NCBI GenBank assembly: GCA_000404785.1
Contig: ASNI01000003.1
Location: 7,731-71,730, forward strand
DNA length: 64,000 nt
DNA from: Cloacimonetes bacterium SCGC AAA252-N17
GTDB lineage: Bacteria; Cloacimonadota; Cloacimonadia; JGIOTU-2
Direction: 5' to 3'
A model generated the notes under the pieces. That model saw only the letters and a list, made by a program, of their open reading frames with translations, was not told the origin of the DNA and did no database searches. Below, in pieces: positions 8,341-64,000 of the stretch. Numbering within the stretch: position 1 is the first letter of the stretch; each line of letters opens with the position of its first letter. The translations under genes were made by a program, and so were the position numbers.

Positions 8341-8794
8341 TTTAATTTCTCCTTTTTTTTCATTTAATCTTAAAAACATGGAATTCAAAAAAAATAACAA
8401 GTGGAAGTTATTAAATTTTCTGATTGCTATGTCATAGTATGACCCTATTTGTGAAATTTACGATTAAATAAGTTTTCATCTAACACCATCTAATATTTAT
8501 TTACTCGCTCTTTGATAATTTTTTAAATAATTTTGTCAAACTTTTTATTTTTTCCATGCATACCTTGAAGAGATGGCATTGAATACTTTTTATACTTGAG
8601 TTTAGGCATAATGGACAAAAGTTGCTTGCTATTTTAAATAGTATTCTGTCAATTTTTTTCTCAATAATTTAGTATCGGCATGAATTCTCAGTTTTGTTTT
8701 CAGGCGTGAGAACATACTTTCTATTGAATTTTTTGTATTAATAATGTGCTATCCGGGATGAGAATGGCTTATGGAATCCTAAATATGTGTGAAA

Positions 8795-34110: not shown

Positions 34111-35067
34111 TTAGAAGCCTAGATCAATGGCAAGTTTATGAGTTGCACCTTCATCAAGAAAATCAGGTATATAGGCATAGTCAAAGCGGAAATCGCTTAA
34201 TACGATCGAAGCGCCCATTGTGAAATCTTCTCCATCAAGACCGGCACGTACAGCAAATAAGTTTGCAAGCCAGCCCTCTACGCCGAGGTGTAATTTGAAA
34301 TCATTTTTCTGATCGCCTTCACGTCCAAGAGACTGAGAAATTTCCGCAGTACCGATCAAATCAAATGAGGTGAGCTGAAGGTCTGTTGATGCGCCAAGAC
34401 GAAGCATGGGAAGTATTGTATCTTCATGGTCAGAATCAGTGTCCCATTTCATCTTTCCACCAAAGTTTAGCAAGCTTGCGCCTGCGCGGATCTGTTTTAT
34501 CAGTCCGCTGGAAACAGGTGAGATGATCATTGCGCCAAGATCGAATGCGAAACTTGATGCCTTGTTGTCATCGATGGATTGCATAATATACTTGGCTCCT
34601 GCACCAAAGCTGAGCAAAGGTATGATCTTGCCACCTGCAGAAATACCCAGAACCATATCATTGGAGCTAAATGTAACTCCGCTTGGACCCTGACCGGGCA
34701 GGCATTCAATAATATCGCTCACTCCAATACTATTGAAGGTGACCGCCATAGCTGCATCACGCTTGCTGCCTACAATGATCGATGCCTGATAGTTCATTCT
34801 ATCTAAGCTCATAATATTGTACATAGCACCCAAGCGTGTGCCTTTTATTTGGCAGAGACCAGCGGGATTGAAGAAGGGAGCTGAGCCGTCATCTGCAATA
34901 GCAGTAAATGCATTTCCCAGACCGGCAGGACGAGCACCAACAGGAATTCTCAGGAAAGCACCTCCCTGTCCGCCTGCAATATCTTCTTCTGCAAACGCAA
35001 AGGAGGTGAATAATCCAAGTATTGCCACGAAAGAAAGTACTGTCTTGATAATTTTATATGTTTTCAT
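34111..35067 (-). CDS. porV: PorV/PorQ-family outer-membrane beta-barrel (T9SS-associated)
   Basis: Signal peptide, then GGAFLRIPVGARPAGLGNAFTAIADDGSAPFFNPAGL, the characteristic PorV N-terminal motif. The protein ends with an aromatic residue (F). Confidence 0.75.
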   Translation of the reverse strand: MKTYKIIKTVLSFVAILGLFTSFAFAEEDIAGGQGGAFLRIPVGARPAGLGNAFTAIADDGSAPFFNPAGLCQIKGTRLGAMYNIMSLDRMNYQASIIVGSKRDAAMAVTFNSIGVSDIIECLPGQGPSGVTFSSNDMVLGISAGGKIIPLLSFGAGAKYIMQSIDDNKASSFAFDLGAMIISPVSSGLIKQIRAGASLLNFGGKMKWDTDSDHEDTILPMLRLGASTDLQLTSFDLIGTAEISQSLGREGDQKNDFKLHLGVEGWLANLFAVRAGLDGEDFTMGASIVLSDFRFDYAYIPDFLDEGATHKLAIDLGF

Positions 35068-35081
35068 TGTTATCTCCTTTC

Positions 35082-37826
35082 CTAGCGTAATATCGCTACT
35101 TTGATGATTTTTTTCTCACCAGCTTGATTTTCAACGATGATAAAATAAACACCATTTGCGACAAAGTCGCCATATTCATTTTTACCATCCCACCGCATAC
35201 TGATATTACCTACATCATCGCTTTCTTTCACCAGTTCACCGGCTATGTCGTATATTCTAAGCTTGGTTTTAGGAGAAATGGGATCATCAAAGTTTGGAAA
35301 TATTTCACCCTCATTAGGATATCCCTCATGTCCAATCTTAAATGGATTTGGACAGAAGCATGGTTCATCAGTAGGTGGTTCAGCAGTTCCAAGCTCGACT
35401 ATCACTTGGTTATTATCTTCATTATACTCTTCTATATCGTAATCGGCATCCGCATGAATATAAATATCATGAGGAAGTGTATCTGGCATAGTCCAATTCA
35501 GAGAAACTGTTTCAGTATTTCCATTTCCCATTGGTCCAATAGTAAATGATCCAATTGGATTGACTATTATTGTTGGATCACCATCATAAAAACGAACAAC
35601 AAACTCACCAACAGTAGCACCACCCTCAGTATGGCATTCAATGGCAGCTTCAAAAGATACTACCTCTCCTTCGGCAGGATGAAGATTTGATACTGTTACA
35701 TTGTTTTCTGTTAATTCAAGATCAACATTTGATGTCCATAATGTAACATATTTTGGAGCAGTTGAATCAGAACAAGCATTTGCTGTATGGACTCTTAGAC
35801 CAATAAGACCTGAGTACAAATTATCAAATACCACATCAGTTGTTTCACCAGTTGCATCATCATATTGTCCATCGCCATTTGTATCCCATTCGTAGAGTAT
35901 GATTTCACCACCATCTGGATCATACGAACCAGAGCCATTCAATGTTATAGTTTCACCAATTTGACCAAAGTAAGGACCACCTGGATCTGCAATTGGAGCA
36001 TGAATTACACCATCATCTACTATTGTAAAATGGACATCTGTATCTGTTAAACTGTCACTACCAGTAACACGCAAAGTTACTTCAAAAGTATCTTCCACAG
36101 AATATTCCCATGTTACAAATTCACCAATAGCATCAGGATTATCCCAGTCAAGACCATCACTTGCATCAAAGTCCCATTCCCATTGAGTAATAAATTCCTC
36201 AGGATTTTGATGATATGAATTTGCACCTGAATAAGCAATCGGAGTATCAGTTGGTTGAGGTAGATTAGAAGAGCTAATAACTGCTATGGGTTGTAATTGA
36301 ACTACACCACGAGTTAATACTAATATTGCAGTAGGAGTTGTTCCTGCTGTCCATGTAATAGCATAAGTTCCACCGGGCCAGGAACCATCAGCATTTTGAC
36401 CATAATAGCTATTGTCAAGAAGGTAATCTGAAATCTCTTCATACCAGTCTATTGGTCCAGTACCAAATGTTGTAATATCGTAGAATTCCATTGCTTTTTT
36501 AAAACCATAAAGTGCATAGTAATTCCCACCTAACATTTCACCAGCCGATCCATCATAGGTATCATAGAAGTGAACATCTAAAAAATTTAGACCATTTACA
36601 ATTGTAGAATCAGTAATTGGTGTTCCAATATAATAATGACTTGCCAGACCTGCTCCTGTTTTAACATTATTATCCCAATAACCGGGGGATGTATATCCAA
36701 AACCACCATCAATATACTGACTATATTCAAGCCAATATGCCAGTTCAGTTTTTACCCATTCTGGTGTTTGTATTGGTGGCATATTTTGTTCAATTGCTTT
36801 CAGAGCAAGCACAGGCCATTGGACAGCTGAGTTATCACTTGAGCCATAATTACTAGTAGCAGCACCATATCGCCAACCACCACGTTGATTTCCAGAGGAT
36901 GCGTCAGTTTGTGACCATGCAATACAATTCATAGCATCTTCCATTATTTCGTAATATGTCATTCCAGCAAGGTTACCACTTGCAACAACACTATCCGGTT
37001 GATTGCTTGCTGCAACAGACAAGCACCCAATACCATTTGCATATACATTAGTAGAAAAATAAACTCCAATACCATCTCCATCAGTATCTGGATCACCAGC
37101 AGTTTGTACATTAATAGAAATGTTTCTGCCATGATGATTTATTATCCAATCTAAGCCTAATTGAACAGTTTCAGCATAAATATCCTCATCAGGATCATTA
37201 TTTCCGTGATGTGCATTCTCTTCAAATGCCAATACAGCCAAGCCAGTCGTACCCATTCCGTAATAATCACTTGAATCGTACCACCAGCCGCTTGCGTTTT
37301 GATTTAAATACAACCAGCGCAAACCATCTTCAATTGCAGCATTAATCCGCTGTTGTTTAGCAACAATCGGGATTACATCAATTGTTGCTTGATCAACATC
37401 TATTAGTCCATCGTCATCAGTCACTGTTAATGTGGCAGTTTTTATACCACCTGTAGTATAGGTATGTGTTACAGCAATATATCGAGCATCTGCAACAGCA
37501 CCTGTCAGAATATTTCCATCACCCAGATCCCATTCATAGTTTCCAGCTGAGATATCACCCCAATGTACGTTACCCCAAATTGTAATTTCTCTACCAACCC
37601 AACTATAATAATGAGGCATACAATTTACCATTGGTCCAGCTTGTTTTGATTGCATTATTTCATTCCAGTCATCAGGATCATTCAATTCAGGGGGAGGAGG
37701 TGCTGTTGAATATTTCTCAAGCAACTCCTGGGCTCGGTCTATCAAATCATCTGCCAACACAGATGATAACATAAAACCTAATGAAATAATAATTCCAATA
37801 AGTATTAATAATATCTGTTTTTTCAT
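35082..37826 (-). CDS. Secreted multidomain protein: PKD, prenyltransferase/terpenoid-cyclase-like alpha-toroid, PKD repeats, CARDB-like, T9SS/FlgD-Ig C-terminal domain
   Basis: Signal peptide; PKD-like WDLGDGN...TATLTVTDDDG and WDFDASDG / WDTNGDG; toroid-like repeats (AIEDGLRWLYLNQNASGWW). The C-terminus is IYDIAGELV...WDGKNEYGDFVANGVYFIIVENQAGEKKIIKVAILR. Confidence 0.8.
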   Translation of the reverse strand: MKKQILLILIGIIISLGFMLSSVLADDLIDRAQELLEKYSTAPPPPELNDPDDWNEIMQSKQAGPMVNCMPHYYSWVGREITIWGNVHWGDISAGNYEWDLGDGNILTGAVADARYIAVTHTYTTGGIKTATLTVTDDDGLIDVDQATIDVIPIVAKQQRINAAIEDGLRWLYLNQNASGWWYDSSDYYGMGTTGLAVLAFEENAHHGNNDPDEDIYAETVQLGLDWIINHHGRNISINVQTAGDPDTDGDGIGVYFSTNVYANGIGCLSVAASNQPDSVVASGNLAGMTYYEIMEDAMNCIAWSQTDASSGNQRGGWRYGAATSNYGSSDNSAVQWPVLALKAIEQNMPPIQTPEWVKTELAYWLEYSQYIDGGFGYTSPGYWDNNVKTGAGLASHYYIGTPITDSTIVNGLNFLDVHFYDTYDGSAGEMLGGNYYALYGFKKAMEFYDITTFGTGPIDWYEEISDYLLDNSYYGQNADGSWPGGTYAITWTAGTTPTAILVLTRGVVQLQPIAVISSSNLPQPTDTPIAYSGANSYHQNPEEFITQWEWDFDASDGLDWDNPDAIGEFVTWEYSVEDTFEVTLRVTGSDSLTDTDVHFTIVDDGVIHAPIADPGGPYFGQIGETITLNGSGSYDPDGGEIILYEWDTNGDGQYDDATGETTDVVFDNLYSGLIGLRVHTANACSDSTAPKYVTLWTSNVDLELTENNVTVSNLHPAEGEVVSFEAAIECHTEGGATVGEFVVRFYDGDPTIIVNPIGSFTIGPMGNGNTETVSLNWTMPDTLPHDIYIHADADYDIEEYNEDNNQVIVELGTAEPPTDEPCFCPNPFKIGHEGYPNEGEIFPNFDDPISPKTKLRIYDIAGELVKESDDVGNISMRWDGKNEYGDFVANGVYFIIVENQAGEKKIIKVAILR

Positions 37827-39395: not shown

Positions 39396-40058
39396 TTAAT
39401 CTAATGCTTTTATCTTGATCGTTGCTTTTGTTCCTTTTTCAGGAACTATGTTTTTGTTTGCTTCATAAAATGTATCATCAGTAATGGTAGGAAGCGGACT
39501 GTGGATTATCGTAAAAGGATCATGATATGTTCTCATAATATTTTGATCGAGACCTGCCATAAATTGTCCATTAACGATCTTTGAACCGAGGAATATCCAG
39601 TGAGTTTTCAGCATTTCACGTTTCTGGGGAATATTCCACACTAAACGCTCGACCCGCTCTTCATGTGTTACCCCAAGAGTATCTGCCCAGATCGCATATA
39701 CAAGCAAAGAATCTCCTTCAGGCATTGTGTCATAATTGCCAAGTTCCATATTTTGTCCGCATTCCAGTCCGAGAAGCAATAGCGAAGTCTGGATATATGC
39801 AGGGAGAGCATCTGTTTTCAATATAGTTTCATGCAATCTCCCTTGGGGACCAACGAGAATGGTTTCGATGAGTCCCCTATTCATATTGAATTCTGCTGGG
39901 AAAGTGATCTCTCTGTTGGCAATATCAATTTTGATGTTATCTATTTTGTAGGTGTTTTCATCAATTTTCATAATTAGTGAATCAGGGGTTTGTGCACATA
40001 AAAATGAGGAGAAGAATATCAGTAACACGCCAACCATAAATACTTTATAAAATTTCAT
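39396..40058 (-). CDS. Secreted hypothetical protein (possibly YdjY-like domain)
   Basis: Signal peptide MKFYKVFMVGVLLIFFSSFLCAQ, then REITFPAEFNMNRGLIETILVGPQGRLHETIL...LLLLGLE. The family call is tentative. Confidence 0.6.
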   Translation of the reverse strand: MKFYKVFMVGVLLIFFSSFLCAQTPDSLIMKIDENTYKIDNIKIDIANREITFPAEFNMNRGLIETILVGPQGRLHETILKTDALPAYIQTSLLLLGLECGQNMELGNYDTMPEGDSLLVYAIWADTLGVTHEERVERLVWNIPQKREMLKTHWIFLGSKIVNGQFMAGLDQNIMRTYHDPFTIIHSPLPTITDDTFYEANKNIVPEKGTKATIKIKALD

Positions 40059-48515: not shown

Positions 48516-49358
48516 ATGAAAGATAATTGTTATATTGAGAATTTGCAAACAATTGGATTATCAGAAGTTGAGTCTAAAGTATATCTAAATCTTCTGAAGA
48601 AAAAAAATTTTACCGCAACTGAGATTTCAAGATTATCCGGAGTTCACCGGACAAAAATCTATGAGGTTTTACATCAGTTAGTAAAAAAGGGCTTGTGCTT
48701 TGAAATATTAGGCAATGTAAACAAATATTCCCCAACAGATCCCAGTAATGCATTGAAAAGACTTATTCAAAAAGCCGAGGATGAGTACAAAAAGGAATTG
48801 GAATATAAGAATATCATAGCATCCAATATTTCAGATAGTCTTGCACATATATATAATTCTGAAAAAGGGAATACAGATCCATTGGATTATATTCAAATAA
48901 TCAGAAACAAGAGCGCAGTAGCAGAACAATTTGAGTATTTACATAAGACAGCAAAGGAGGAAATTCTATGTTTTGCCAAAAGCCCTTTCATGATACCTAC
49001 AGCAAAATATTTCCCGGTGCATTATGCTCTAAAGAATAAACTTATTGTGAAATCTATTTATGAAATAAAAGATTTGGAAAACATAGATTATAAAAATGAA
49101 GTTGTCTCTTTTATTTAAGAAGGTGAAGAGGTAAAATTTTATGAGGACCTTCCAATAAAAATGATGGTTTTTGATAGAAAAATTGTTTTATTGGGATTAG
49201 TTGATAATATATATCCTAATGAAAATTGTACTACATTAGTGATTGAACATAAAGATATAGCAAACACATTTATACACTTATTTGATAATTGTTGGAAGAA
49301 AGCAATAGATAGTAATGATTTTAATATTGAAAATAATAAAATATTAAAGGAGCAATAA
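48516..49358 (+). CDS. TrmB-family transcriptional regulator interrupted by in-frame TAA (49116-49118)
   Basis: N-terminal wHTH LSEVESKVYLNLLKKKNFTATEISRLSGVHRTKIYEVLHQLVKKGL. ORFs 48516-49118 and 49161-49358 are in the same frame, and the codons between them (EGEEVKFYEDLPIK) are open. Confidence 0.75.
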
Positions 49359-51106
49359 TGAAAAAGTATAAATTATCATTCTTATACTTAACGATTCTTT
49401 TCTTGCTATTCACCACTAAATCATACGGTCAATGGCTCGAGACGACAATTCCAGTAGGAAGTAATCCTAATCACTTAGTTTATAATTCAACCGATAACAA
49501 AATATACACTGCTAACTGGGGTTACGGTGCCAACACTGTTACCGTGATTGATGGTGCAACCAATAGTGTCATCACAACAATTCCAATAGGAAATGCTCCT
49601 CATACCTTATGTTATAATCCGACCAATAATAAAGTATACACTGCTAATCCTTTTAGCGACCCTTCCACTGTTACCGTGATTGATGGTGCAACCAATAGTG
49701 TCATCACAACAATTCCAGTAGGAACTTATCCTTATGGTCCAATGTATAATCCGACTGACAACAAAGTATATACTGCTAACTGGACAAGCAACGATGTTAC
49801 GGTGATTGATGGTGCAACCAATGGTGTAATTACAACAATTACACTTGGAGCGCCCGCTCCCTGGGGACCCTTTGACTTAGGTTATAATCCGACCGACAAC
49901 AAAGTATATTGTGCTAATTGGTCTAATAGCACTGTTACCGTGATTGATGGTGCAACCAATAGTATAATTACTACAATTCCAGCCGGAACTTACCCCTGCG
50001 CAGTCGTTCATAATCCGACCAATAACAAGGTCTATTGGGCTAATTCAAGCGCCTCGAGCAGCAGTGTTACCGTGATTAATGGTGCAACCGATAGTGTAAT
50101 TACTACAATTCCAGTAAAACGTGTTCCTTATGCCTTAACTTATAATCTAACCAATAACAAAGTTTACTGTGCAAATCAGTGGCGCGACACGGTTACTGTG
50201 ATTGATGGTGCAACCGATAGTGTCATCACAACAATTCCAGTAGGAGATGAACCTTCTGCTTTATTTTATAATCCGACTAATAACAAAGTCTATTGTGCTA
50301 ATTCAGGGACTTACTCCAGTATGGGTAGGACTATCACAATTATTGATGGTGCAACCAATAGTGTACTTACTACAATTGAAGTCGGCAACGGTCCTAAAGC
50401 CTTTACTTATAACCCGCAATATAACCGAGTCTATGTTGCGAATTATTATGGTAACAGCGTATCAGTAATTCGGGATTCGATGCTAACAGCACCAGCATTC
50501 TCCGTCACGCCTGAGAGTATCGATTTTGGCGAGGTATATATCGATTCGAGCAAGACCGAAAGTGTTACTGTGACTAATACGGGCAACGCAACACTGGATA
50601 TCACCTCAGTGATGTCAGATAATGCTGAGTTTACTGTTACACCAAACAGTGGTAGCCTTGCTCCAGCAGAAAGCATGGAATTCCACATCACTTTTGCTCC
50701 GACCGATCCCGGTGCCGAAACAGGTAACATCATCTTTATGCATAATGCTACGACCTCGCCAGACACGGTAACCGTAGTTGGAAACGTGATTGTTGGTATC
50801 GACGAAATAGAGTATGATGGCATTCCTGCATTCTACGCTTTATCACATAACTATCCCAATCCATTCAAGACCGAGACCTACATTCACTTTCAATTGCCCC
50901 GACCTGGTGTTGCTGCAATTGCGATCTATAACGTCACTGGTCAACGCATAAAAACTCTGGTTAACGAGCACATGGATGCCGGTTATCATACTGTTCGTTG
51001 GGATGGCAAAAGTGAAGATAATCAAAGAGTAAGTAGCGCTGTTTATTTCTGTCTGATGAAAGCTGGTGAATATACTTCGGTGAAAAAGATTTTCTTAATG
51101 CGTTAA
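49358..51106 (+). CDS. Secreted YVTN-family beta-propeller repeat protein with Ig-like domain and T9SS/FlgD-Ig C-terminal domain
   Basis: About 8 repeats of NNKVY.AN....TVTVIDGATNSVITTIPVG, with a 50-nt exact DNA repeat at 49536-49585 and 49668-49717. The C-terminus reads NYPNPF...IYNVTGQRI...WDGKSEDNQRVSSAVYFCLMKAG. Confidence 0.85.
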   Translation: MKKYKLSFLYLTILFLLFTTKSYGQWLETTIPVGSNPNHLVYNSTDNKIYTANWGYGANTVTVIDGATNSVITTIPIGNAPHTLCYNPTNNKVYTANPFSDPSTVTVIDGATNSVITTIPVGTYPYGPMYNPTDNKVYTANWTSNDVTVIDGATNGVITTITLGAPAPWGPFDLGYNPTDNKVYCANWSNSTVTVIDGATNSIITTIPAGTYPCAVVHNPTNNKVYWANSSASSSSVTVINGATDSVITTIPVKRVPYALTYNLTNNKVYCANQWRDTVTVIDGATDSVITTIPVGDEPSALFYNPTNNKVYCANSGTYSSMGRTITIIDGATNSVLTTIEVGNGPKAFTYNPQYNRVYVANYYGNSVSVIRDSMLTAPAFSVTPESIDFGEVYIDSSKTESVTVTNTGNATLDITSVMSDNAEFTVTPNSGSLAPAESMEFHITFAPTDPGAETGNIIFMHNATTSPDTVTVVGNVIVGIDEIEYDGIPAFYALSHNYPNPFKTETYIHFQLPRPGVAAIAIYNVTGQRIKTLVNEHMDAGYHTVRWDGKSEDNQRVSSAVYFCLMKAGEYTSVKKIFLMR

Positions 51107-51266
51107 GAAGCGGATTAATTGAAGCGAGTTGATAATATAAACAGAGATATAAGATCCTCGTACCTACCTCTTGTGGGGCAAGATATGCATGTTGATCGAG
51201 ATTAAAGCAATTTGTGCGGAAAAGATGACCAATAAAGATCAAAACATCATAAGAGGAGGTGATATA

Positions 51267-51809
51267 ATGCTTAAGCAAAGCTTACAAGCAATTGGTTTCC
51301 TTGTTGCTATAGTGTGCTTGCTTAATAGCTCACCTTTGTTTGCCCAGAGTCCTCCAGATACTCTCTGGACAAAGGCATTCGGAGGCACTGACAAAGATTG
51401 GGGTGAGTCAGTTTGCCAGACTTCTGATGGAGGATATATAATAGCTGGCTATACAAGCTCCTACGGTGCGGGTGGATTTGATGTTTATCTTATTAAAATA
51501 AATGCGGAACCGATAGAGATAGACAACCAAGAATCCTTACCGTCATGTTCCCCATTCCTCCAGAATTATCCTAATCCATTTAACTCCAAAACATCTATAA
51601 AATACTCATTATCACATCCGGGTAATGTACAAGTTGAAATTTACAATATAAAAGGACAATTAGTAGAAACCCTTTTGGATAAAGATACATCCATCGGCTT
51701 TCATACTATTGAATGGGATGCACAGGATATGACTCTGGGTATCTACTTCTGCAAACTCGTTGCTGACAAGAAGGAAACCGTGAAAAAAATGGTGCTAATA
51801 ATGTTATAA
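51267..51809 (+). CDS. Short secreted SBBP-like single-repeat protein with T9SS/FlgD-Ig C-terminal domain
   Basis: AGGAGG SD; MLKQSLQAIGFLVAIVCLLNSSPLFAQ; one PDTLWTKAFGGTDKDWGESVCQTSDGGYIIAGYTSSYGAGGFDVYLIK unit; C-terminus NYPNPF...IYNIKGQLV...WDAQDM. Confidence 0.8.
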   Translation: MLKQSLQAIGFLVAIVCLLNSSPLFAQSPPDTLWTKAFGGTDKDWGESVCQTSDGGYIIAGYTSSYGAGGFDVYLIKINAEPIEIDNQESLPSCSPFLQNYPNPFNSKTSIKYSLSHPGNVQVEIYNIKGQLVETLLDKDTSIGFHTIEWDAQDMTLGIYFCKLVADKKETVKKMVLIML

Positions 51810-51931
51810 TTTCAAAGTTTAATTCCATACATTAGGAGACATGAAACTGTTCAAAAAAATAAAAATTCAAAGCATAAACCTGTTCCTTATCAAAATAAGC
51901 AGAAACACAAAATTAAAGAACGGAGGTAAAG

Positions 51932-53446
51932 ATGTTAAAGCAACCATATATAACTTTAACAGAAAAGTTACAAAACCTAATAATGCATAAAAAATTACTA
52001 ATCAGCATATTCATAGGATTGGTGATATGGATTTTAAGTGCAAATCTATGGGCGCAACCAGATACTCTCTGGACAAAGACTTACGGTGGTACAGGTAGTG
52101 ATCGTGGTGAGTCTGTTTGCCAAACAACAGACGGTGATTATATAATAGCTGGATCGACACGATCTTTCGGTGCAGGTGGATCTGATGTATGGCTTATAAA
52201 GACAGATGCAAATGGTGATACACTCTGGACAAGAACATTTGGAGGTACTGATACTGATCGTGGATTTTCAGTCTGTAAGTCAACGAATGACGGCTATGCA
52301 ATAGCTGGTTATACAAGCTCTTATGGTGCAGGTGGAAATGATGTATATCTTATAAAGACAGATGCAAACGGTGATACACTCTGGACAAAAACTTTCGGCG
52401 GTACAGGTAGTGACCGCAGCCTTTCGGTTTGCAAGACAACAGATGATGGTTATATAATCGCAGGTTATACAAATTCATATGGTGCAGGCGGAAATGATGT
52501 CTATCTTGTAAGGACAGATGCAAACGGTGATACACTCTGGACAAAAACTTACGGTGGTACAGACAATGATTGGGGTAGATCGGTTTGCCAAACAACAGAT
52601 GGAGGGTATGTAATAACTGGTGAGACATTATCCTACGGAATAGGTTTATATGATGTATATCTCATCAAAACAGATTGTAACGGGGATACACTTTGGACTA
52701 AAACATATGGAGGAACCGGTAATGATTATGGATTTTCAGTTTGTCAGACAATTGATGAAGATTATCTCATAGTAGGTTATACTAGTTCATTTGGTAAATC
52801 CTTAGGAGATGTATATCTCATAAAGACAGACTCAAATGGAAATACCTATTGGCAGGAAACATACGGCGGTTATTATACGGATTGCGGATATTCAATTTTT
52901 GAAATAGTAGGTGGAGGGTATGTCATAGCTGGTGAGACATGGTCCTTCGGAGCAGGACAAGGTGACGTATATCTCATAAAGACTGACATTGCGGGTTGTA
53001 TTATATGGACTAAGACAATCGGAGGAATAACCAGTGATCATGGTTATTCAATTCGTCAAACAACGGATGAAGGGTTTATTATAGCCGGTTATACGGACTC
53101 ATTCGGGGCAGGTGGAAATGATGTGTATCTTATAAAAACTGACATGGATCCGGTTGGAATTGATAATCATGAAGATACATTATCCAACCTACAATATATA
53201 CAGAATTACCCTAATCCATTTAAAAATCATACTGCAATAAGTTACACATTAAAAAAACCACGTAATATAATTATGAGAATTTACAATGTGAAAGGAAAAT
53301 TGGTACAAGAAATTTTTAAAGGAAACAAAGATACTGGAACACACACAATTGAATGGGATGCAAAAGATATGACTCCTGGTATCTATTTCTACAAACTCAC
53401 TGCCGACAAGAAAGAAATCGTGAAGAAAATGGTGCTGATGAGATAA
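51932..53446 (+). CDS. Secreted SBBP-like beta-propeller repeat protein (about 8 repeats) with T9SS/FlgD-Ig C-terminal domain
   Basis: Repeats of about 50 aa, (D.NGDT)LWTKT(Y/F)GG.G.D.G.SVCQT.D.GY.I.G.T.S.GAG..DV.LIKTD. GGAGG SD is present. The C-terminal domain is paralogous to that of 51267-51809. Confidence 0.85.
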   Translation: MLKQPYITLTEKLQNLIMHKKLLISIFIGLVIWILSANLWAQPDTLWTKTYGGTGSDRGESVCQTTDGDYIIAGSTRSFGAGGSDVWLIKTDANGDTLWTRTFGGTDTDRGFSVCKSTNDGYAIAGYTSSYGAGGNDVYLIKTDANGDTLWTKTFGGTGSDRSLSVCKTTDDGYIIAGYTNSYGAGGNDVYLVRTDANGDTLWTKTYGGTDNDWGRSVCQTTDGGYVITGETLSYGIGLYDVYLIKTDCNGDTLWTKTYGGTGNDYGFSVCQTIDEDYLIVGYTSSFGKSLGDVYLIKTDSNGNTYWQETYGGYYTDCGYSIFEIVGGGYVIAGETWSFGAGQGDVYLIKTDIAGCIIWTKTIGGITSDHGYSIRQTTDEGFIIAGYTDSFGAGGNDVYLIKTDMDPVGIDNHEDTLSNLQYIQNYPNPFKNHTAISYTLKKPRNIIMRIYNVKGKLVQEIFKGNKDTGTHTIEWDAKDMTPGIYFYKLTADKKEIVKKMVLMR

Positions 53447-54479: not shown

Positions 54480-54486
54480 TGTGCAT

Positions 54487-54901
54487 AAGATAATAAGACG
54501 ATCGCCCTCCGATAAATCGGGGGAAGGAAAGTCCGAACACCAGGAGCACGATACTACGTAACACGTAGTTCCAGCGATGGAAAGAAAGTGCCACAGAAAA
54601 TAAACCGCTCTCGATTAGTCGGGAAGCAAGGGTGAAAAGGTGGTGTAAGAGACCACCAGTGCCGGTGGTGACATCGGCAGCTCGGTAAACCTTATTGGTG
54701 CAAGGTCAAATAGAAGAGGAATCCGCCAACCGGCGGATACGAACTGCTCCATTCGTCATACTCTCGGGTAGACCGCCAAACTCAATCACAGAACGGACTG
54801 TGAGTTCTTCTTCGGAAGAGTGCTGTGAAGCTTGAGATAGATAAATGATCGTCGTCCCGAACTTGTACTTCGGGAAACAGAATTCGGCTTATTATTATCT
54901 T
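54487..54901 (+). ncRNA. rnpB: RNase P RNA, bacterial type A
   Basis: GGAAGGAAAGTCCGAACAC, GTGCCACAGAAAA, GGTGAAAAGGTGGTGTAAGAGACCACC, GGTAAACC and ACAGAATTCGGCTTA. P1 is formed by AAGATAATAAG with CTTATTATTATCTT. Confidence 0.92.
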
Positions 54902-54928
54902 CTGCATATTATAAGGTTTGGAGAATAG

Positions 54929-57602: not shown

Positions 57603-59096
57603 ATGAAAAACTTAATTCTTGTTCTCGTATCAGCCCTCTTATTCGGGCTTTCATTTATTGATGTTGGAGTGGGATTTCTCTGTTTTTTTGCATTCATACC
57701 ATATCTTTATTTCATAACAAAAGCAACACCGAAACATGCATTTCTTTTTGGATTTTTATTCGGATTATTCATCACACTGATCACCTTATACGGTGTGATA
57801 AATGTTAAGCTTATCGCCTTCATCGGACTCCTCATCGTGCTGCCGCTTTATTTTGCGATACTCTCTGTTCTTCTGCGAAAGGTGCATGAAAGTTTTCAGA
57901 AAGCATTTTTATGGATATTTCCTGTTATATGGATCGGCTATGAATATCTGATGACTCTCGGATCATTGAATTTTCCATGGCTGAACGTTGGTTACTCGCT
58001 CTCAAAATATTATCTACTCATACAAGCTGCTGATCTGCTCGGCATTTATGGATTATCTTTTCTTGTTCTTATCATAAATGTACTTCTTTTTAATGTTTTC
58101 ACAGGCAAGCCAAAAAGACTTCTCATTATCCTCATTATTTTTGTGCTCTGGATCGGATACGGCATCTATCGAGATAAGACCATCAAACTAAAAAGTTCTG
58201 ATTTAAAGATTGGAATTATTCAGCTCAATATTATGCAGGAAGACAAGTGGAAACCCGAAAAGCTCGAGCCAACTATTGATGAATATGAAAACCAGGTGCG
58301 CATTCTGGCACATATCAATGATGTGAATGTGATCATTTTACCAGAATCTGCAATCCCTACCTACATTTTGCATGAACCCAAATACAGAAAACGTCTTCAG
58401 AAATTTGCTACTGATAATAGAGTCTATGTGATCACAGGATTCCCTGACTATGCAGTGGAGATCGTGAAGAACAGACCGAAATATAAATTTTATAACAGCG
58501 CTACACTCATTGACACAGCAGGTACAATACACGAAAAATACAATAAGATCCGCCTTGTTCCCTTTGGTGAGAGAATTCCCCTTTTGAGCACTTTTCCCGT
58601 TCTTGAAAAACTGCAGTTCGGACAGGCGAATTTTGAATTTGGAACAGACTATCCGCTATATAAAATCGGCAATTTGAATTTTTCTATTCTGATCTGTTTT
58701 GAAGGTGTGTTCCCGGACCTATCACGGATCTATGCAAAAAATGGAGCGGATGTCCTTGTTGTCATCACTAACGATGCCTGGTTTAAACGGACAGCGCTCC
58801 CCTATGAGCATGCCAATAACACGAAAATACGCGCTATCGAGACACGGCTTCCGCTCATCCGTGCTGCGAATACAGGCATCTCATACATTGTGAACGCAAA
58901 AGGTAAGACGATCATTTCAACAGATGTATATGAAAGAATAAATATTACCAGCAAACTGACAGTGAAAGCATCAGATATAAAAACCATTTTTGTAAAGTTT
59001 GGCTACCTGTTCGCTCCGCTATGCTTTTGGTTCAGTGTTGTGATCATTTTAATATCAATAATTTTACCATTATTTATAATGAAAAGAGTCAAATGA
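57603..59096 (+). CDS. lnt: Apolipoprotein N-acyltransferase
   Basis: Multiple N-terminal TM helices and a C-terminal CN-hydrolase domain (ILPESAIP, VPFGERIP, ILICFE). Confidence 0.9.
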   Translation: MKNLILVLVSALLFGLSFIDVGVGFLCFFAFIPYLYFITKATPKHAFLFGFLFGLFITLITLYGVINVKLIAFIGLLIVLPLYFAILSVLLRKVHESFQKAFLWIFPVIWIGYEYLMTLGSLNFPWLNVGYSLSKYYLLIQAADLLGIYGLSFLVLIINVLLFNVFTGKPKRLLIILIIFVLWIGYGIYRDKTIKLKSSDLKIGIIQLNIMQEDKWKPEKLEPTIDEYENQVRILAHINDVNVIILPESAIPTYILHEPKYRKRLQKFATDNRVYVITGFPDYAVEIVKNRPKYKFYNSATLIDTAGTIHEKYNKIRLVPFGERIPLLSTFPVLEKLQFGQANFEFGTDYPLYKIGNLNFSILICFEGVFPDLSRIYAKNGADVLVVITNDAWFKRTALPYEHANNTKIRAIETRLPLIRAANTGISYIVNAKGKTIISTDVYERINITSKLTVKASDIKTIFVKFGYLFAPLCFWFSVVIILISIILPLFIMKRVK

Positions 59097-59497
59097 GCAT
59101 TAAAAGCATCAAACTACAAAAAACAAAATATTACTACACCATGCGGGAAGTGTGCAACATTCTGGATCTCAAGCCACATGTGCTTCGATTCTGGGAAACC
59201 CAGTTCCCGCAGCTCAATCCGCAGCGCAAACAAGGTTCGAACAGACGTTATACACAAAAGGACATTCAACTTCTAAAGAAAATCCAATATCTCCTTTACG
59301 AAAAGAAATTCAAGATAAAAGGAGCAAAAAAAGCGCTTCGTAATGTTGAGGATATTTCCACAAAAGAAAATGTACAGATCGATATGGAAAGTTATGAGAG
59401 CAAAAGAGCGTTGAAACGGCTCAGAAATAAACTTGCTGAATTGAAAAATATTACATTAAATTTTTTAAAAGATACACAAAAAAATTCCGATGAATAA
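59093..59497 (+). CDS. MerR-family transcriptional regulator
   Basis: YYTMREVCNILDLKPHVLRFWETQFPQL...RRYTQKDIQLL. The ATG overlaps the lnt stop (ATGA). Confidence 0.8.
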   Translation: MSIKSIKLQKTKYYYTMREVCNILDLKPHVLRFWETQFPQLNPQRKQGSNRRYTQKDIQLLKKIQYLLYEKKFKIKGAKKALRNVEDISTKENVQIDMESYESKRALKRLRNKLAELKNITLNFLKDTQKNSDE

Positions 59498-60392
59498 TAT
59501 AAAAAAAGCTTCTGCCTGGGCTCCCAATCACATCACTGGATTCTTCTATTCAAAGATGGACAAAGACCCGATACAGAGCAGTTCGCTTGGTGCAGGTGTC
59601 AATCTATCACAAGGAACAACAACTCAGATCGAAATCCAACCTGCCTATGAAAATGACGTCTCCATTTTAATAAATGAAAATATATCGAAGGCAGAACTCT
59701 CTCACTGGCTCGTGAAAGAATTTTTAAAAAAATACATTAATGATAACTACAAAATTGACATTCATCACAAAATGGAAATGCCAATCAGCGCAGGATTTGG
59801 CACAAGCGGAAGCGGAGCTCTGAGTTTGGTGCTTGCTTTGAAAAAAGTTTTTAATATTGAGATTTCTGATGAAGAGTGCTACAAACTCGCCCACATTGCT
59901 GATGTTGAGAACAAAGGCGGTTTGGGGACTGTCATGGCAGAGATAGCCGGCGGTCTGGAAATCCGGGTTGCCTTTGGCGGTCCGGGTATCGGAAAAGTGG
60001 AAACCATCCGCCAGCTGGCGGATTATAAAGTTGTCATTCTCTATTTCTGTCCCTATCAAACTAAGGAAGCGCTTTTAGATAAAAATTTAATGGAAAAGGT
60101 TAATAAATTCGGTAAAACATGCGTGAACGATCTGCTTAAAGATCCATCTATAGAACGCTTTCTCGAGCTTTCACAATGGTTTGTAAAAAAGATCGAAGTA
60201 GTGACCGAGCGAGTCTCAGACATCATAAAAAAATTGGAACGAAACGGATTTCTCTGCAGTATGCCGCTCTTTGGTGAAAGTGTGTTCAGCATCCAGAAAA
60301 ACGAAAAAGCTGAAGAACTGCAGAATATTTTTCATGAATACGGTACAACCTATATTTCAAAAATCAGCACAGAAGGTCCCCATGTTAATTGA
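59490..60392 (+). CDS. Pantoate kinase, archaeal type (GHMP kinase family)
   Basis: N-terminal AWAPNHITGFF and GHMP motif PISAGFGTSGSGALSLVLAL. The context is panE, panB and the phosphopantothenate synthetase gene. Confidence 0.7.
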   Translation: MNNIKKASAWAPNHITGFFYSKMDKDPIQSSSLGAGVNLSQGTTTQIEIQPAYENDVSILINENISKAELSHWLVKEFLKKYINDNYKIDIHHKMEMPISAGFGTSGSGALSLVLALKKVFNIEISDEECYKLAHIADVENKGGLGTVMAEIAGGLEIRVAFGGPGIGKVETIRQLADYKVVILYFCPYQTKEALLDKNLMEKVNKFGKTCVNDLLKDPSIERFLELSQWFVKKIEVVTERVSDIIKKLERNGFLCSMPLFGESVFSIQKNEKAEELQNIFHEYGTTYISKISTEGPHVN

Positions 60393-61140
60393 AGTTCCCA
60401 ATTCCCATCCACGCGCACTATCCCTGCACATCCGCGAAAAGCTCATTGCCGGTTTTGACAAAGGACTTGTTGCAAAAGCGGGACTTATCGCACATGGCAG
60501 AGGTGAGTGCTTTGATTATCTCATTGGAGAAAAAACACAACCCTTTACTGAACGTTCGATCGAAGCCGCCTGTGCAATGCTTCTCCTTGCTGAACATCCG
60601 GTGCTTTCTATCAACGGCAATGTTGCAGCACTCTGTCCTGAAGGCATCATCAAAATGAGTAAAGTTGCTGATGCACCTCTTGAGATAAATCTTTTTTATC
60701 GAACAAAAGAACGTGAAGATGCACTTCTGAAGCATATGAAAGAACATGGCGCTCATGAGATTCTCGGCGTGGGAGATGATGAAACAGTGCAGATCGAAGA
60801 ATTGCAAAGCAATCGCAGGATCGTGTCCAAAAAGGGCATTTTCATCGCTGATGTGGTATTCGTACCGCTTGAAGATGGAGACCGTACTGAAGCGCTGGTT
60901 GCATTTGGCAAGAAAGTCATAACTGTTGACCTCAATCCCCTATCCCGAACTGCGCAGAAAGCCCAGATCACTATCGTAGATAATATAGTGCGAAGTGTTC
61001 CGCTCATGACAAAAAAGATCATAGAGATGAAGAAATATTCTACTCAAAAATTGCAGAAAATATGCGATAATTTTGATAATCAACACACACTAAAAATGGC
61101 GTTGCAGTTCATTCTACAGCGTTTGAGGGAGCTTTCATGA
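60382..61140 (+). CDS. 4-phosphopantoate--beta-alanine ligase (phosphopantothenate synthetase), archaeal type
   Basis: HPRALSLHIREKL...GLIAHGRGECFDYLIGE...SINGNVAAL, collinear with the archaeal DUF137-type enzyme as I recall it. It overlaps the previous gene by 11 nt. Confidence 0.75.
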   Translation: MLIEVPNSHPRALSLHIREKLIAGFDKGLVAKAGLIAHGRGECFDYLIGEKTQPFTERSIEAACAMLLLAEHPVLSINGNVAALCPEGIIKMSKVADAPLEINLFYRTKEREDALLKHMKEHGAHEILGVGDDETVQIEELQSNRRIVSKKGIFIADVVFVPLEDGDRTEALVAFGKKVITVDLNPLSRTAQKAQITIVDNIVRSVPLMTKKIIEMKKYSTQKLQKICDNFDNQHTLKMALQFILQRLRELS

Positions 61141-62030
61141 ATATCATAATAATCGGAGCTGGGGCAATTGGTACCTACCTGGCAGCTGCGATCTCACGCG
61201 AGTATGATGTTATACTCGTTGGGAAAAAGGAACATCATCACAAAGATCATTTCAAGGTCATACAAAAGCAGGGAATTCTTCTTTCCGGCTTTCAGACATT
61301 TATGAGCGAAGTGCTCACCACAAGGGAGTTAAAAGAGATTCCAGAGAACTCTCTTATACTTGTTGCAACCAAAGCTTACGATGTGAAAACTGTATTTGAA
61401 GACCTGAAAAACATCGTTAAAGAAGATACTGTGTTCATGCTTATCCAGAACGGTATTGGCGTCAAAGAGGAAGTCAGGGACATTCTTCCAAATGAAATCA
61501 TCCGTTCAGTAACTGGTATCGGTGCAGAAATTATTCGTCATGGTGAAGTCAGAACATCCTGGGGAAAGGTCGTTTTGGAAAATACTCAATCTGCACAAAA
61601 AGTCTATGAAATCTTCTCAAACAGCCAGTTCGCCACGCGCATATCTGATAACATAATATCAGAAGAATGGCTCAAACTTTCTATCAATGCTTTTGTGAAT
61701 CCTCTTACCACACTGCTGCAGGTACGCACGAACATGCTCTCCACACCTGAACTGCGAATCCTGGTGGGAAAAGTCATCGATGAAGTGATCGCAGTTGCAG
61801 AAAAAGAAGGCATCGCAGTTGAAAGAGAAAAAGTCATCCGTACAATAGACCGGCTAAGTAAATATCACAATTTCTCATCCATGTATCAGGACGTGAAAAA
61901 GGGCAAAAAGACAGAGCTGGACTACATCACAGGAGCGATCATACAAAGAGCTAAGAAACACAGCATACCTGTGCCGATGAACGAATTTCTTTACGACTCA
62001 ATACATTTTTTAGAAAAATATGGATACTGA
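61137..62030 (+). CDS. panE: 2-dehydropantoate 2-reductase
   Basis: IIIIGAGAIGTYLA Rossmann motif, SSMYQDVKKGKKTELDYITG. The ATGA overlaps the upstream stop. Confidence 0.85.
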   Translation: MNIIIIGAGAIGTYLAAAISREYDVILVGKKEHHHKDHFKVIQKQGILLSGFQTFMSEVLTTRELKEIPENSLILVATKAYDVKTVFEDLKNIVKEDTVFMLIQNGIGVKEEVRDILPNEIIRSVTGIGAEIIRHGEVRTSWGKVVLENTQSAQKVYEIFSNSQFATRISDNIISEEWLKLSINAFVNPLTTLLQVRTNMLSTPELRILVGKVIDEVIAVAEKEGIAVEREKVIRTIDRLSKYHNFSSMYQDVKKGKKTELDYITGAIIQRAKKHSIPVPMNEFLYDSIHFLEKYGY

Positions 62031-62055
62031 GAAAATGTCTAATGACTCCCGACCT

Positions 62056-62498
62056 GTCGGGACTAATTTCTAATGGAAATCCAAATTACAAATGACTGAT
62101 AACAAGAGATTCGATTTAGAAGAGAGAACTGCAAAATTTGGTGAAAATATCATTAAATTTGCTAAAAAGATTCCCCAAAATCCAATAACCCTCCCTCTTA
62201 TAACACAATTAGTTAAGGCAGTTACGAGCGTTGGGGCAAATTACTCGGAAGCGGATTGTGCTGAATCCAAAAAGGACTTTGAGCATAAAATTGGCATCTG
62301 TAATAAAGAATCCAAGGAATCAAAGCACTGGTTAAGAATGATATCAGTAGCTGTTCCAGAACTCAAAGATGAAGCAAAAATTCTATGGAAAGAAGCTCAC
62401 GAATTGAATCTGATCTTCTCCTCCATAATAATTAAATCAAGAAAAAGATGAAACTTTGGTATTTGAACTTTGAAATTTTATTAGACATTAGTCCCGAC
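62056..62498. repeat. 19-bp inverted repeat (18/19) bracketing the four-helix-bundle gene cassette
   Basis: GTCGGGACTAATTTCTAAT (62056-62074) and ATTAGACATTAGTCCCGAC (62480-62498). Each arm is part of a local TCCCGAC-NN-GTCGGGA palindrome (62047-62062 and 62492-62507). Confidence 0.7.
62092..62451 (+). CDS. Four-helix-bundle protein (23S rRNA intervening-sequence protein family)
   Basis: 119 aa, ...QLVKAVTSVGANYSEA...SKKDFEHKIGICNKESKESKHWLRM, the family signature. Confidence 0.85.
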   Translation: MTDNKRFDLEERTAKFGENIIKFAKKIPQNPITLPLITQLVKAVTSVGANYSEADCAESKKDFEHKIGICNKESKESKHWLRMISVAVPELKDEAKILWKEAHELNLIFSSIIIKSRKR

Positions 62499-62524
62499 TT
62501 GTCGGGAAGAAATTAAAGGATAAA

Positions 62525-63325
62525 ATGATTATTTCTAATATTTCTACTATGCGAGAGCATAAAGTTAAGGATATCCAAAAACTTAAAAATAAAGAAAAGA
62601 TCGTAATGCTCACCTGTTACGACTTTCAGATGGCAAAGATCTTTTCCTCTGTCGGTATTGACATCATCCTTGTGGGAGATAGTCTCGGCATGGTTTTTCA
62701 GGGTGATTCCACCACAAAAAACGTAATCATGGAGCAGATGCTTTACCACGTCCAGGCAGTCTCAAAAGGCGCTGGAGATCTTCCTATTGTTGGAGATATG
62801 CCGATCCATTCCTATAAAAATAAAGAGATCGCTCTTGATAATGCACAGCGATTCATAGATGCTGGTGCTGATGCGGTCAAACTGGAAGGATACTTTCCTG
62901 AGACTATCTCCTATCTCGTGAAACATACTATTCCAGTGCAGGGACATATCGGACTGCTTCCTCAAACCTATGAATCCTTCAAGGTGGTCGGCAGAAAGCA
63001 GGAAGATCATGACCGGCTTCTGAAAGAAGCAAAGGAAATCGAAGAGGCAGGTGCTTTCACACTTGTACTGGAATCAATTCCCGAACAATTGGGTAAAGAA
63101 ATAACAGAAAGTGTAGGTATCCCGACGATCGGTATCGGTGCAGGCAAATTTTGTGATGGACAGGTGCTCGTTATAAATGATCTGCTTGGTATGGATCCCG
63201 CCTTTCATCCCAAATTTGTGAAGCATTATGCAAACCTTTTTGAAATCATTTCACAGAGTGTATCTGCATTCAAACGAGATGTGAAAAACAAGACCTATCC
63301 TGATAAGGAACATGTTTATGAATAG
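62525..63325 (+). CDS. panB: 3-methyl-2-oxobutanoate hydroxymethyltransferase
   Basis: MLTCYD, LVGDSLGMV, VGDMP, VKLEG and IPTIGIGAG motifs. Confidence 0.92.
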   Translation: MIISNISTMREHKVKDIQKLKNKEKIVMLTCYDFQMAKIFSSVGIDIILVGDSLGMVFQGDSTTKNVIMEQMLYHVQAVSKGAGDLPIVGDMPIHSYKNKEIALDNAQRFIDAGADAVKLEGYFPETISYLVKHTIPVQGHIGLLPQTYESFKVVGRKQEDHDRLLKEAKEIEEAGAFTLVLESIPEQLGKEITESVGIPTIGIGAGKFCDGQVLVINDLLGMDPAFHPKFVKHYANLFEIISQSVSAFKRDVKNKTYPDKEHVYE

Positions 63326-64000
63326 ATCGTCACTTCCCAAAAACGAGGTGCTGGAACTCATCCGAGCTGCGCTCAAACATGATAAATCCTATAAAAACGG
63401 CAATGTCATCAGCACGATGTGTACCTATCCCGACAAATTCGCTCAAGAGCTTTTTTCCACTTTTATTGATAGGAACATCGGCGATGCAAACCTTTTCCCA
63501 GGTGTGATCGAACTGGAAAAGGAAACCATTCAGATGCTGGGAGATATGCTGCACAATCCCTATGCTTACGGCAATATAGTCACCGGCGGCACAGAAGCGA
63601 ATTTCCTTGCGCTCTGGGCATACCGCGAGCTTTCAGGAAAGCATACAATAATTGTGCCCGAAACCGCTCATTTCTCGCTCTATAAAAGTGCGAACATTCT
63701 CAATCTAAATATAAAAACTGTTAAAGTAACCAGGCAAAGGCAGATGGATATTGCTGAAGCGGAAAAAGCCATTGATGACAACACATTCTGCATTGTAGGC
63801 ATCGCAGGTACGACCGAACTCGGCGTGATCGACCCAATTTACAAACTTTCAGCTCTTTGTGAGAAATATAAACTCTATCTGCATATCGATGCAGCATTTG
63901 GTGGATTTGTTATTCCCTTTTTAAAGGACATGGGCTATGATGCTGACGATTTTGATTTTTCCCTTCCAGGCGTAAGCTCCATCACGATCGATCCGCATAA
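63318..64000 (+). CDS. mfnA: PLP-dependent decarboxylase of the MfnA type (probable L-aspartate/tyrosine decarboxylase), 3'-truncated by the window edge
   Basis: The frame is open from the ATG at 63318 to the window end, with TGGTEANFLAL, GIAGTTELGVIDP, HIDAAFGGFVIPFL and SSITIDPH. It overlaps the panB stop. Confidence 0.75.
   Translation, partial: MNRSSLPKNEVLELIRAALKHDKSYKNGNVISTMCTYPDKFAQELFSTFIDRNIGDANLFPGVIELEKETIQMLGDMLHNPYAYGNIVTGGTEANFLALWAYRELSGKHTIIVPETAHFSLYKSANILNLNIKTVKVTRQRQMDIAEAEKAIDDNTFCIVGIAGTTELGVIDPIYKLSALCEKYKLYLHIDAAFGGFVIPFLKDMGYDADDFDFSLPGVSSITIDPH

Follow-up and report, generated by a model that had tools for sequence, protein, structure and literature searches.

The 64,000-nucleotide stretch analysed here (hereafter the window) comes from the Cloacimonetes bacterium SCGC AAA252-N17 (GenBank assembly GCA_000404785.1, contig ASNI01000003.1, positions 7,731 to 71,730 of the forward strand). 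At 59093-64000 its plus strand carries genes for a MerR-family regulator, a predicted pantoate kinase (PoK), a predicted phosphopantothenate synthetase (PPS), PanE, a small four-helix-bundle protein, PanB and a truncated MfnA-type decarboxylase dependent on pyridoxal 5'-phosphate (PLP), and the enzyme genes very probably belong to an operon that makes 4'-phosphopantetheine by the archaeal PoK/PPS route (Table 1). A look-up of the PanB protein led to a contig (L001) that matches the window at 100% identity over 10 kb and, beyond the window end, carries the full-length MfnA gene, an overlapping coaBC and then genes in opposite orientation. The full unit thus reads (lnt-)merR-PoK-PPS-panE-(4HB)-panB-mfnA-coaBC, 4HB being the four-helix-bundle gene, and consists of co-directional, mostly overlapping genes, with overlaps of 4 nt at lnt/merR, 8 at merR/PoK, 11 at PoK/PPS, 4 at PPS/panE, 8 at panB/mfnA and 22 at mfnA/coaBC.

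The open reading frames (ORFs) and peptide motifs quoted in a preliminary description of this DNA were all found in place by ORF listing and translation, and its ATG start for PPS at 60382 was retained, the longest ORF, from a TTG at 60271, being an unlikely gene. Its merR start at 59021 should most likely be moved to 59093, where the gene overlaps the lnt stop codon. The genes that it listed are present, but the 119-aa four-helix-bundle gene between panE and panB had been overlooked, and while the MfnA ORF does leave the window as described, the cluster does not end there, since coaBC overlaps it beyond the window. A scan for promoters and terminators gave chance-level counts (53 vs 46 expected, and 12 vs 11, respectively), and no transcription-unit boundaries were drawn from it.

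Table 1. Features of the CoA cluster and its upstream flank, in window coordinates.
Feature	Position	Strand	Evidence or remark
RNase P RNA, bacterial class A	54486..54906	+	Rfam RF00010 231.6 bits vs gathering score 100; 4.6 kb upstream of the cluster
Lnt, apolipoprotein N-acyltransferase	57603..59096	+	TIGR00546 312.9 bits vs 132.9; stop codon overlaps merR start by 4 nt
MerR-family helix-turn-helix regulator, 134 aa	59093..59497	+	PF13411 70.3 bits; gene call in L001
Predicted pantoate kinase (PoK), GHMP kinase, 300 aa	59490..60392	+	pantoate-kinase NCBIfam models; PDB 6JBC
Predicted PPS, 4-phosphopantoate--beta-alanine ligase (phosphopantothenate synthetase), 252 aa	60382..61140	+	PF02006, NF041123, PDB 3WDK
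PanE/KPR, 2-dehydropantoate 2-reductase, 297 aa	61137..62030	+	TIGR00745; PDB 5AYV/5HWS
Insertion of ~445 bp with four-helix-bundle gene (62092-62451, 119 aa)	62047..62507	+	TIGR02436, PF05635; not in pathway
PanB, ketopantoate hydroxymethyltransferase, 266 aa	62525..63325	+	PF02548, TIGR00222
MfnA-type PLP decarboxylase, N-terminal 227 codons	63318..64000	+	TIGR03812; full protein 387 aa on L001
coaBC, 410 aa	window-equivalent 64460-65692 (outside window, on L001)	+	TIGR00521

Profile hidden Markov models (HMMs) ranked pantoate-kinase and PPS families first for 59490-60392 and 60382-61140, respectively, and placed neither gene in another family, in agreement with the preliminary reading of the former as a pantoate-kinase-like GHMP kinase. 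The best NCBIfam matches of PoK were two pantoate-kinase models (175 and 148 bits), followed at a distance by mevalonate kinase (38 bits). Against solved structures it matched the PoK of Thermococcus kodakarensis (TkPoK, PDB 6JBC) over its full length (residues 9-299, E=1.7e-41), with the next GHMP structure at E=7e-5. An AlphaFold2 model built with 30 homologues (pLDDT 93) likewise found 6JBC as its best fold match (TM 0.89/0.91, rmsd 2.1), ahead of mevalonate diphosphate decarboxylases (TM ~0.74), and in both sequence and fold no other GHMP kinase comes as near to the protein as characterised PoK. Ser104, Glu134, Asp143, Arg155 and Thr186 of TkPoK are presumably the catalytic or substrate residues; in a 60-sequence alignment the window protein keeps the equivalents of S104, H131, R155 and T186 and has Asp in place of Glu134. 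The PoK gene adjoins PPS not only here but also in every archaeal locus examined and in those bacterial loci that have kept PoK.

The adjacent gene, described beforehand as phosphopantothenate-synthetase-like, passes PF02006 (247.2 bits vs 26.4, E=9.5e-74), NF010324 (359.6 vs 227) and the equivalog model for 4-phosphopantoate--beta-alanine ligase, NF041123 (305.4 vs a cutoff of 300), and it matches the solved PPS of T. kodakarensis (3WDK, E=3.2e-79) and Thermococcus onnurineus (4MB0, E=2.1e-78), both matches covering residues 3-251/252. Its membership in the PPS family is therefore supported, and ligation of 4-phosphopantoate with beta-alanine is its predicted reaction.

The remaining enzymes of the cluster were equally recognisable, and the panE and panB calls both stand. 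PanE passed TIGR00745 (218.7 vs 141.35) and matched both ApbA domains (PF02558 and PF08546), and PanB matched PF02548 (320.5 bits) and the equivalog TIGR00222 (278.6 vs 207.55). The MfnA fragment inside the window scored 280.8 bits with TIGR03812 on 229 of ~375 positions, and the PLP lysine (DPHK) sits just beyond the window end; the full-length protein on L001 (387 aa) carries the PLP-lysine motif SSITIDPHKMG and passes the equivalog (443.5 vs 299.4), which bears out the earlier assignment to MfnA-type PLP decarboxylases. Its best PDB match was Methanocaldococcus jannaschii MfnA (3F9T/6JY1, 247 bits). The family scores of the window enzymes lie well above what chance would give. CoaBC from L001 passed TIGR00521 (382 vs 219.7) and contains the flavoprotein and DFP domains, PF02441 and PF04127.

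The best PDB match of PanE was the ketopantoate reductase (KPR) of T. kodakarensis (5AYV/5HWS, ~110 bits), whose Cys84, the residue altered between the two entries, I take to form a disulfide with the feedback inhibitor CoA (coenzyme A). This cysteine aligns with an Asp in the window PanE, so that CoA feedback cannot be assumed for this protein, and the idea of such feedback through a Cys84 equivalent was dropped. Feedback by CoA on KPR has been documented in T. kodakarensis, and pantothenate kinase (PanK) is the feedback control point in bacteria (PMC6650551). The archaeal mode of CoA feedback may not have accompanied this operon.

The preliminary description had assigned the cluster to a bacterium. 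The window contains a bacterial RNase P class A RNA and a transfer-messenger RNA (tmRNA; Rfam scan), and it encodes Lnt, DNA polymerase I, an Amidase_3 enzyme and proteins with sorting domains of the type IX secretion system; close PPS and PoK homologues, at 58-99% identity, bear the name Candidatus Cloacimonetes. The RNase P RNA, the tmRNA and Lnt, together with close homologues named Cloacimonetes or Cloacimonadota, identify the host as a bacterium, as claimed. Upstream of the operon, the order RecJ-DUF5128-Lnt-MerR is kept in the Cloacimonadota loci in which the upstream flank is present, and the merR product is 77-100% identical across Cloacimonadota loci. Since neither the archaeal operons nor the closest relatives outside Cloacimonadota (both described below) contain merR, this gene marks host DNA at the junction; the overlapping merR is the only candidate regulator, and it belongs to the host and not to the transferred block.

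Within Cloacimonadota, a scan of one genome per species of GTDB found PPS at 79-98% identity in nine other species, among them NIOZ-UU3 from the Black Sea, Ca. Cloacimonas sp. 4484_140 and Ca. Celaenobacter antarcticus, and tblastn recovered the same gene order in the loci of all nine as far as their contigs reach. Identical or syntenic loci come from four NCBI assemblies, a JGI contig, a Logan contig and these nine species, in a survey that covered close relatives only; the four NCBI assemblies with identical loci I take, from their accession series, to be single-cell genomes of 2013.

Outside Cloacimonadota, the nearest relatives are four loci from Guaymas Basin and other metagenomes (L032-L035; L032:5595-11233) that carry PoK-PPS-PanE-PanB-MfnA-CoaBC as overlapping genes, with products 50-64% identical to those of the window. 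I refer to them as TA06-like, a putative label taken from the UniRef name of one member of the same 90%-identity CoaBC cluster; an Rfam scan of the comparison loci found no RNA markers of their domain of origin. They are flanked by nadB-nadA-nadC and a ROK kinase gene and lack merR, and because the neighbourhoods differ, the block must occupy different chromosomal sites in the two lineages. A third bacterial lineage may hold part of the block: on a clearly bacterial contig (L029:1779-4176, GCA_054007035.1; ApbE, PgpA, SecDF, PdxJ, CinA, PPDK) an MfnA-like decarboxylase gene (50% identity) overlaps a coaBC (58%) that belongs to the same clade derived from archaea, with ApbE and a radical SAM gene upstream in place of PoK-PPS-PanE-PanB. 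The suggestion that the operon could serve as a lineage marker is accordingly of limited use, given its presence in the putative TA06 lineage and a survey restricted to close relatives.

The same genes in the same order were found in archaea. Contigs L031 and L039 carry PoK-PPS-PanE-PanB-MfnA-CoaBC followed by the gene for phosphopantetheine adenylyltransferase (PPAT), and L038 (8001-13282) carries PoK-PPS-PanE-PanB-CoaBC-PPAT, with no MfnA and with a PoK (P0169) named Candidatus Bathyarchaeota archaeon. Their archaeal nature is indicated on L031 by an archaeal-type methionine adenosyltransferase (667 bits vs 557) and an archaeal-type PPAT, while L038 and L039 are flanked by a gene for CTP-dependent riboflavin kinase, an archaeal enzyme. 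Further afield, a contig that encodes Cren7 (L030) carries CoaBC-PoK-PPS, and loci from Nitrososphaeria carry PoK-PPS-PanB-CoaBC in this same order. L030 and L031 were reached through CoaBC matches and L038 through a PoK match.

Identity to the window proteins fell from the TA06-like operon L032 (PoK 50, PPS 61, PanE 51, PanB 64, MfnA 61 and CoaBC 61%) to the archaeal operons L031 (40, 54, 36, 56, 47 and 53%, in the same order) and L039 (40, 56, 36, 55, 50 and 52%), and then to Nitrososphaeria (PoK 31-33, PPS 51-56, PanB 41-44 and CoaBC 41-47%), with E. coli PanB at 39.5% and E. coli CoaBC (Dfp) at 33%. The nearest named PPS relatives outside Cloacimonadota belonged to Desulfurococcaceae (58-63% identity), and PoK relatives beyond Cloacimonadota formed a tier at 47-50%, followed by sequences at ~40% that include one named Bathyarchaeota. 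For CoaBC, the matches after Cloacimonadota were a cluster at 62% that contains the TA06-named protein, the L029 protein at 58%, and then more than 100 matches at 51-56%; all four of the latter that were checked are archaeal, one being named Thermoproteota (P0230) and three lying on L030, L031 and L038 with their archaeal markers. When CoaBC sequences were placed in a neighbour-joining (NJ) tree with E. coli as the root, the clade of Cloacimonadota, TA06 and L029 sequences was nested among archaeal ones. Of the phylogenies of the two key enzymes proposed in the preliminary description, that of PPS was run (numpy NJ bootstrap, unrooted), and it recovered the Cloacimonadota and TA06 groups at 100% each.

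A move of all six genes from archaea to bacteria as one block, with PPAT left behind, is the most economical explanation of these comparisons and the best reading of the sequences; six enzyme genes collinear with archaeal operons and a CoaBC nested within archaea back the acquisition from archaea more strongly than had been proposed. I consider it highly probable, taking both parts together, that the Cloacimonadota operon serves to make 4'-phosphopantetheine by the archaeal PoK/PPS route and that the block was taken from an archaeon as a unit. In this pathway PanB and PanE would convert 2-oxoisovalerate to pantoate, which PoK would phosphorylate to 4-phosphopantoate; the MfnA-type PLP decarboxylase would supply beta-alanine from aspartate, PPS would join 4-phosphopantoate and beta-alanine to 4'-phosphopantothenate, and CoaBC would add cysteine and decarboxylate the product to 4'-phosphopantetheine. 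Genes for PPAT and for dephospho-CoA kinase (DPCK), the last two steps of CoA synthesis, were not seen in the cluster, and host CoaD and CoaE would complete CoA. Phosphorylation would thus come before condensation, as it does in most archaea, with no passage through free pantothenate, an order already put forward in the preliminary description and supported at the level of enzyme families by the HMMs and the T. kodakarensis matches. As for its history, the block would have entered bacteria from an archaeon without the PPAT gene that trails the archaeal operons, would in Cloacimonadota have landed directly downstream of the host merR, and would have been shared, or exchanged, with the lineage named TA06. 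More specifically, I hold it possible, if with slightly more doubt than belief, that the block moved in one piece from a Bathyarchaeia-like archaeon to FCB-group bacteria (Cloacimonadota, TA06 and partly L029), where it displaced PanC, PanK and PanD as well as the bacteria's own PanB, PanE and CoaBC. If so, CoA synthesis in these bacteria would be archaeal up to 4'-phosphopantetheine.

Several observations weigh against this account. PoK stays under the cutoffs of the NCBIfam equivalogs NF041122 (175 vs 500) and NF040725 (148.4 vs 380), although these models are clade-specific and the PoK of archaeal L031 stays under them likewise (182.7 vs 500 and 179.9 vs 380). Asp143 of TkPoK is Thr in the window protein, yet it is also Thr in 56 of the 60 aligned members, archaeal ones included. 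On the side of origin, the trees were built by simple NJ and sample bacteria thinly, that of CoaBC having a single bacterial outgroup, and the PPS tree united Cloacimonadota with TA06 at 55% bootstrap and did not pinpoint the donor lineage. PanB (39.5% identical to the E. coli protein and 55-56% to those of the archaeal operons) and PanE (32-36% identical to its counterparts there) carry a weaker signal of origin, and composition gives no independent sign of transfer, the GC content of the operon (0.40-0.46) being barely above the window mean of 0.375.

Three alternatives concern the pathway. An operon of archaeal type might exist alongside a canonical route (panC with coaX or coaA, and panD) encoded elsewhere in the genome, and be redundant or used conditionally. 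The search for canonical genes covered the 64-kb window and ~20-kb flanks of relatives, a small part of the genome; there, no Pantoate_ligase, Pan_kinase, CoaA or Asp_decarbox domain occurred among the 48 ORFs of 150 aa or more in the window, and neither PanC nor PanD of E. coli had a tblastn match in the window, in the Cloacimonadota loci or in the TA06-like ones. The operon, with its overlapping genes, is also kept across species at PoK identities down to 62%, which argues for purifying selection, and I regard such coexistence as unlikely. Less likely still is that the MfnA-type enzyme has another role, for instance as a tyrosine or glutamate decarboxylase, and is not the source of beta-alanine. 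TIGR03812 is indeed named tyrosine decarboxylase MfnA, its scores do not reveal substrate specificity, and the function as an aspartate decarboxylase giving beta-alanine is inferred only from the operon slot between panB and coaBC. However, mfnA overlaps both of these genes in every bacterial copy and holds the same slot in archaeal L031 and L039, under 6JY1 the enzyme of M. jannaschii is entered as an L-tyrosine/L-aspartate decarboxylase, and I know of no bacteria that make methanofuran, the product served by MfnA in methanogens. It is very improbable, finally, that the bacterial order of reactions applies, with pantothenate synthetase activity in the PF02006 protein and pantothenate kinase activity in the GHMP kinase. 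An early report is said to have assigned pantothenate synthetase activity to a Methanosarcina homologue, and the NCBI product name of NF010324, 'phosphopantothenate/pantothenate synthetase', is ambiguous. Against this order stand the equivalog model passed by PPS, its strong full-length match to the biochemically characterised T. kodakarensis enzyme, the match of the kinase to TkPoK, and the PoK-then-PPS sequence established in T. kodakarensis and Methanospirillum hungatei (PMC6650551).

The origin of the block leaves room for two further explanations. One would reverse the direction, with an old bacterial operon of the FCB group passed on to Bathyarchaeia-like archaea, or would have the operon be ancestral; the small size of the trees, the unrooted PPS tree and the long branch of the bacterial clade leave some scope for this. 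It is nevertheless hard to reconcile with PoK-PPS-PanB-CoaBC in Nitrososphaeria and CoaBC-PoK-PPS on a Cren7-encoding Thermoproteota contig, or with the nesting of the bacterial CoaBC clade within archaea when rooted on E. coli, and I give it little credence. The other is an artefact of assembly or binning, in which an archaeal fragment was misjoined to, or binned with, bacterial DNA, a concern raised by sources that are mostly metagenome-assembled genomes (MAGs) or NCBI assemblies taken to be single-cell genomes. Here, at least 15 independent assemblies show the operon flanked by bacterial genes on one contig, with the upstream order RecJ-DUF5128-Lnt-MerR conserved; merR overlaps the reading frames of both lnt and PoK, and a bacterial RNase P RNA lies 4.6 kb upstream. 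An artefact is effectively excluded.

One element between panE and panB stands apart from the pathway. The four-helix-bundle gene encodes a member of the '23S rRNA intervening sequence protein' family (TIGR02436 62.5 bits, PF05635 44.5 bits), and the insertion that contains it is flanked by duplicated 16-nt hairpins of the form TCCCGAC(CT/TT)GTCGGGA, namely TCCCGACCTGTCGGGA at 62047-62062 and TCCCGACTTGTCGGGA at 62492-62507. In a relative that is 98% identical (L007) the site is empty, with one hairpin and a spacer of 53 nt, while in other species it holds the gene intact (L014), a truncated version of it (L011), or other filler with the right-end motif TTTTATTAGACATTAG in common. The insertion looks like a small mobile cassette, or else the site looks like an insertion hot spot within an essential operon.

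Other parts of the window encode large secreted-looking proteins with PKD, CARDB, Ig-like and Por_Secre_tail (type IX secretion) domains at 877-8400 (-), 35082-37826 (-) and 49358-53446 (+), including a 2507-aa ORF whose sole Pfam match is CARDB; GC content at third codon positions (GC3) is very low, 0.20-0.25, in two of these. Tandem CbiA/MinD-like ATPases with 4Fe-4S ferredoxin inserts lie at 20446-22184 (+), a DUF134 protein at 16341-16793 (+), a TrmB-family regulator at 48516-49118 (+) and an ARMT1-like (DUF89) damage-control phosphatase at 32024-32869 (+), families frequent in archaea and in anaerobes. ORFs of 1091, 318 and 220 aa at 10900-14175 (-), 34111-35067 (-) and 39396-40058 (-), respectively, had no Pfam match at E<=1e-5.

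The closest characterised system is that of T. kodakarensis, whose PoK/PPS pathway was reportedly described by Yokooji in 2009. The two share the PoK and PPS families, with full-length matches, and the same inferred order of phosphorylation and then ligation; a PLP-dependent decarboxylase, and not pyruvoyl PanD, is likewise the inferred source of beta-alanine, and KPR is the best solved match of PanE. The window operon differs in its bacterial host, in forming one overlapping operon, in having neither an archaeal PPAT nor an archaeal-type DPCK beside it, and in the replacement of KPR Cys84 by Asp. The PoK-then-PPS route itself is established in T. kodakarensis and M. hungatei (Shimosaka 2019, PMC6650551). 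Compared with the canonical bacterial route, the starting and end metabolites are the same and PanB, PanE and CoaBC come from the same protein families, whereas condensation and phosphorylation would be swapped and carried out by unrelated enzymes, the decarboxylase is PLP- and not pyruvoyl-dependent, and there is no PanK in the operon.

Among the operons found here, the Bathyarchaeia-like ones (L031, L038 and L039) have the same order PoK-PPS-PanE-PanB-(MfnA)-CoaBC on one strand, at 32-56% identity; they run on into PPAT, while the bacterial copies have no PPAT, have shorter or overlapping junctions and, in Cloacimonadota, are preceded by the host merR. The TA06-like operon shares all six genes, their order and the overlapping junctions, and differs in its flanks and in the lack of merR. 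Bathyarchaeota had been listed among the archaea without PoK/PPS homologues (mBio 2019, PMC6650551); judging from L038, at least some of them evidently do have such homologues.

Calling this an unusual configuration for a bacterium was justified, but it is not unprecedented, as Entoporibacteria, which are sponge-associated Poribacteria, carry archaeal PoK/PPS that were read as the result of horizontal transfer (Thomes and Lescure 2020, PMC7883664). Poribacteria have a bacterial-type DPCK, no classical KPR (IlvC was proposed instead) and an E. coli-like ketopantoate hydroxymethyltransferase and CoaBC, and their PoK/PPS are nearer to those of Euryarchaeota (PMC7883664). By comparison with this published description, the present case involves another phylum, and panE, panB, the decarboxylase gene and coaBC accompany PoK/PPS and look archaeal-derived as well. 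What is new here is the set of six enzyme genes collinear with archaeal operons, which occurs also in a second putative bacterial lineage (TA06).

A further archaeal-type gene set has been described in the same phylum, namely archaeal-type lipid genes, with a functional GGGP/DGGGP synthase, in the Black Sea Cloacimonetes MAG NIOZ-UU3 (Villanueva 2020, PMC7852524). The ether-lipid pathway is unrelated to CoA; this MAG also carries the CoA operon (locus L008, JACNJG010000093.1), so that the lineage holds at least two archaeal-type gene sets. The main text and the searched supplements of PMC7852524 mention neither pantoate nor pantothenate, and the PoK/PPS pathway is not mentioned in that paper or in two Cloacimonadota genomics papers. 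In the searchable literature I found no paper that ties Cloacimonadota to pantoate, nor meaningfully to pantothenate or CoA biosynthesis, although public pipelines already label some of the genes pantoate kinase or phosphopantothenate/pantothenate synthetase.

The pair of pantothenate synthetase and PanK on the one hand and PoK/PPS on the other has been treated as a marker that divides Bacteria from Archaea, with Entoporibacteria as the sole bacterial exception in the searchable literature. The operon described here would extend the exceptions to free-living anaerobic Cloacimonadota and probably to TA06. It also provides candidates for mesophilic PoK, PPS and PLP-dependent aspartate decarboxylases, and annotation pipelines that seek only panC and coaX would miscall such bacteria as pantothenate or CoA auxotrophs. 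More broadly, it suggests that an operon for an essential cofactor can pass whole from one domain to the other, together with the steps that Archaea and Bacteria share.

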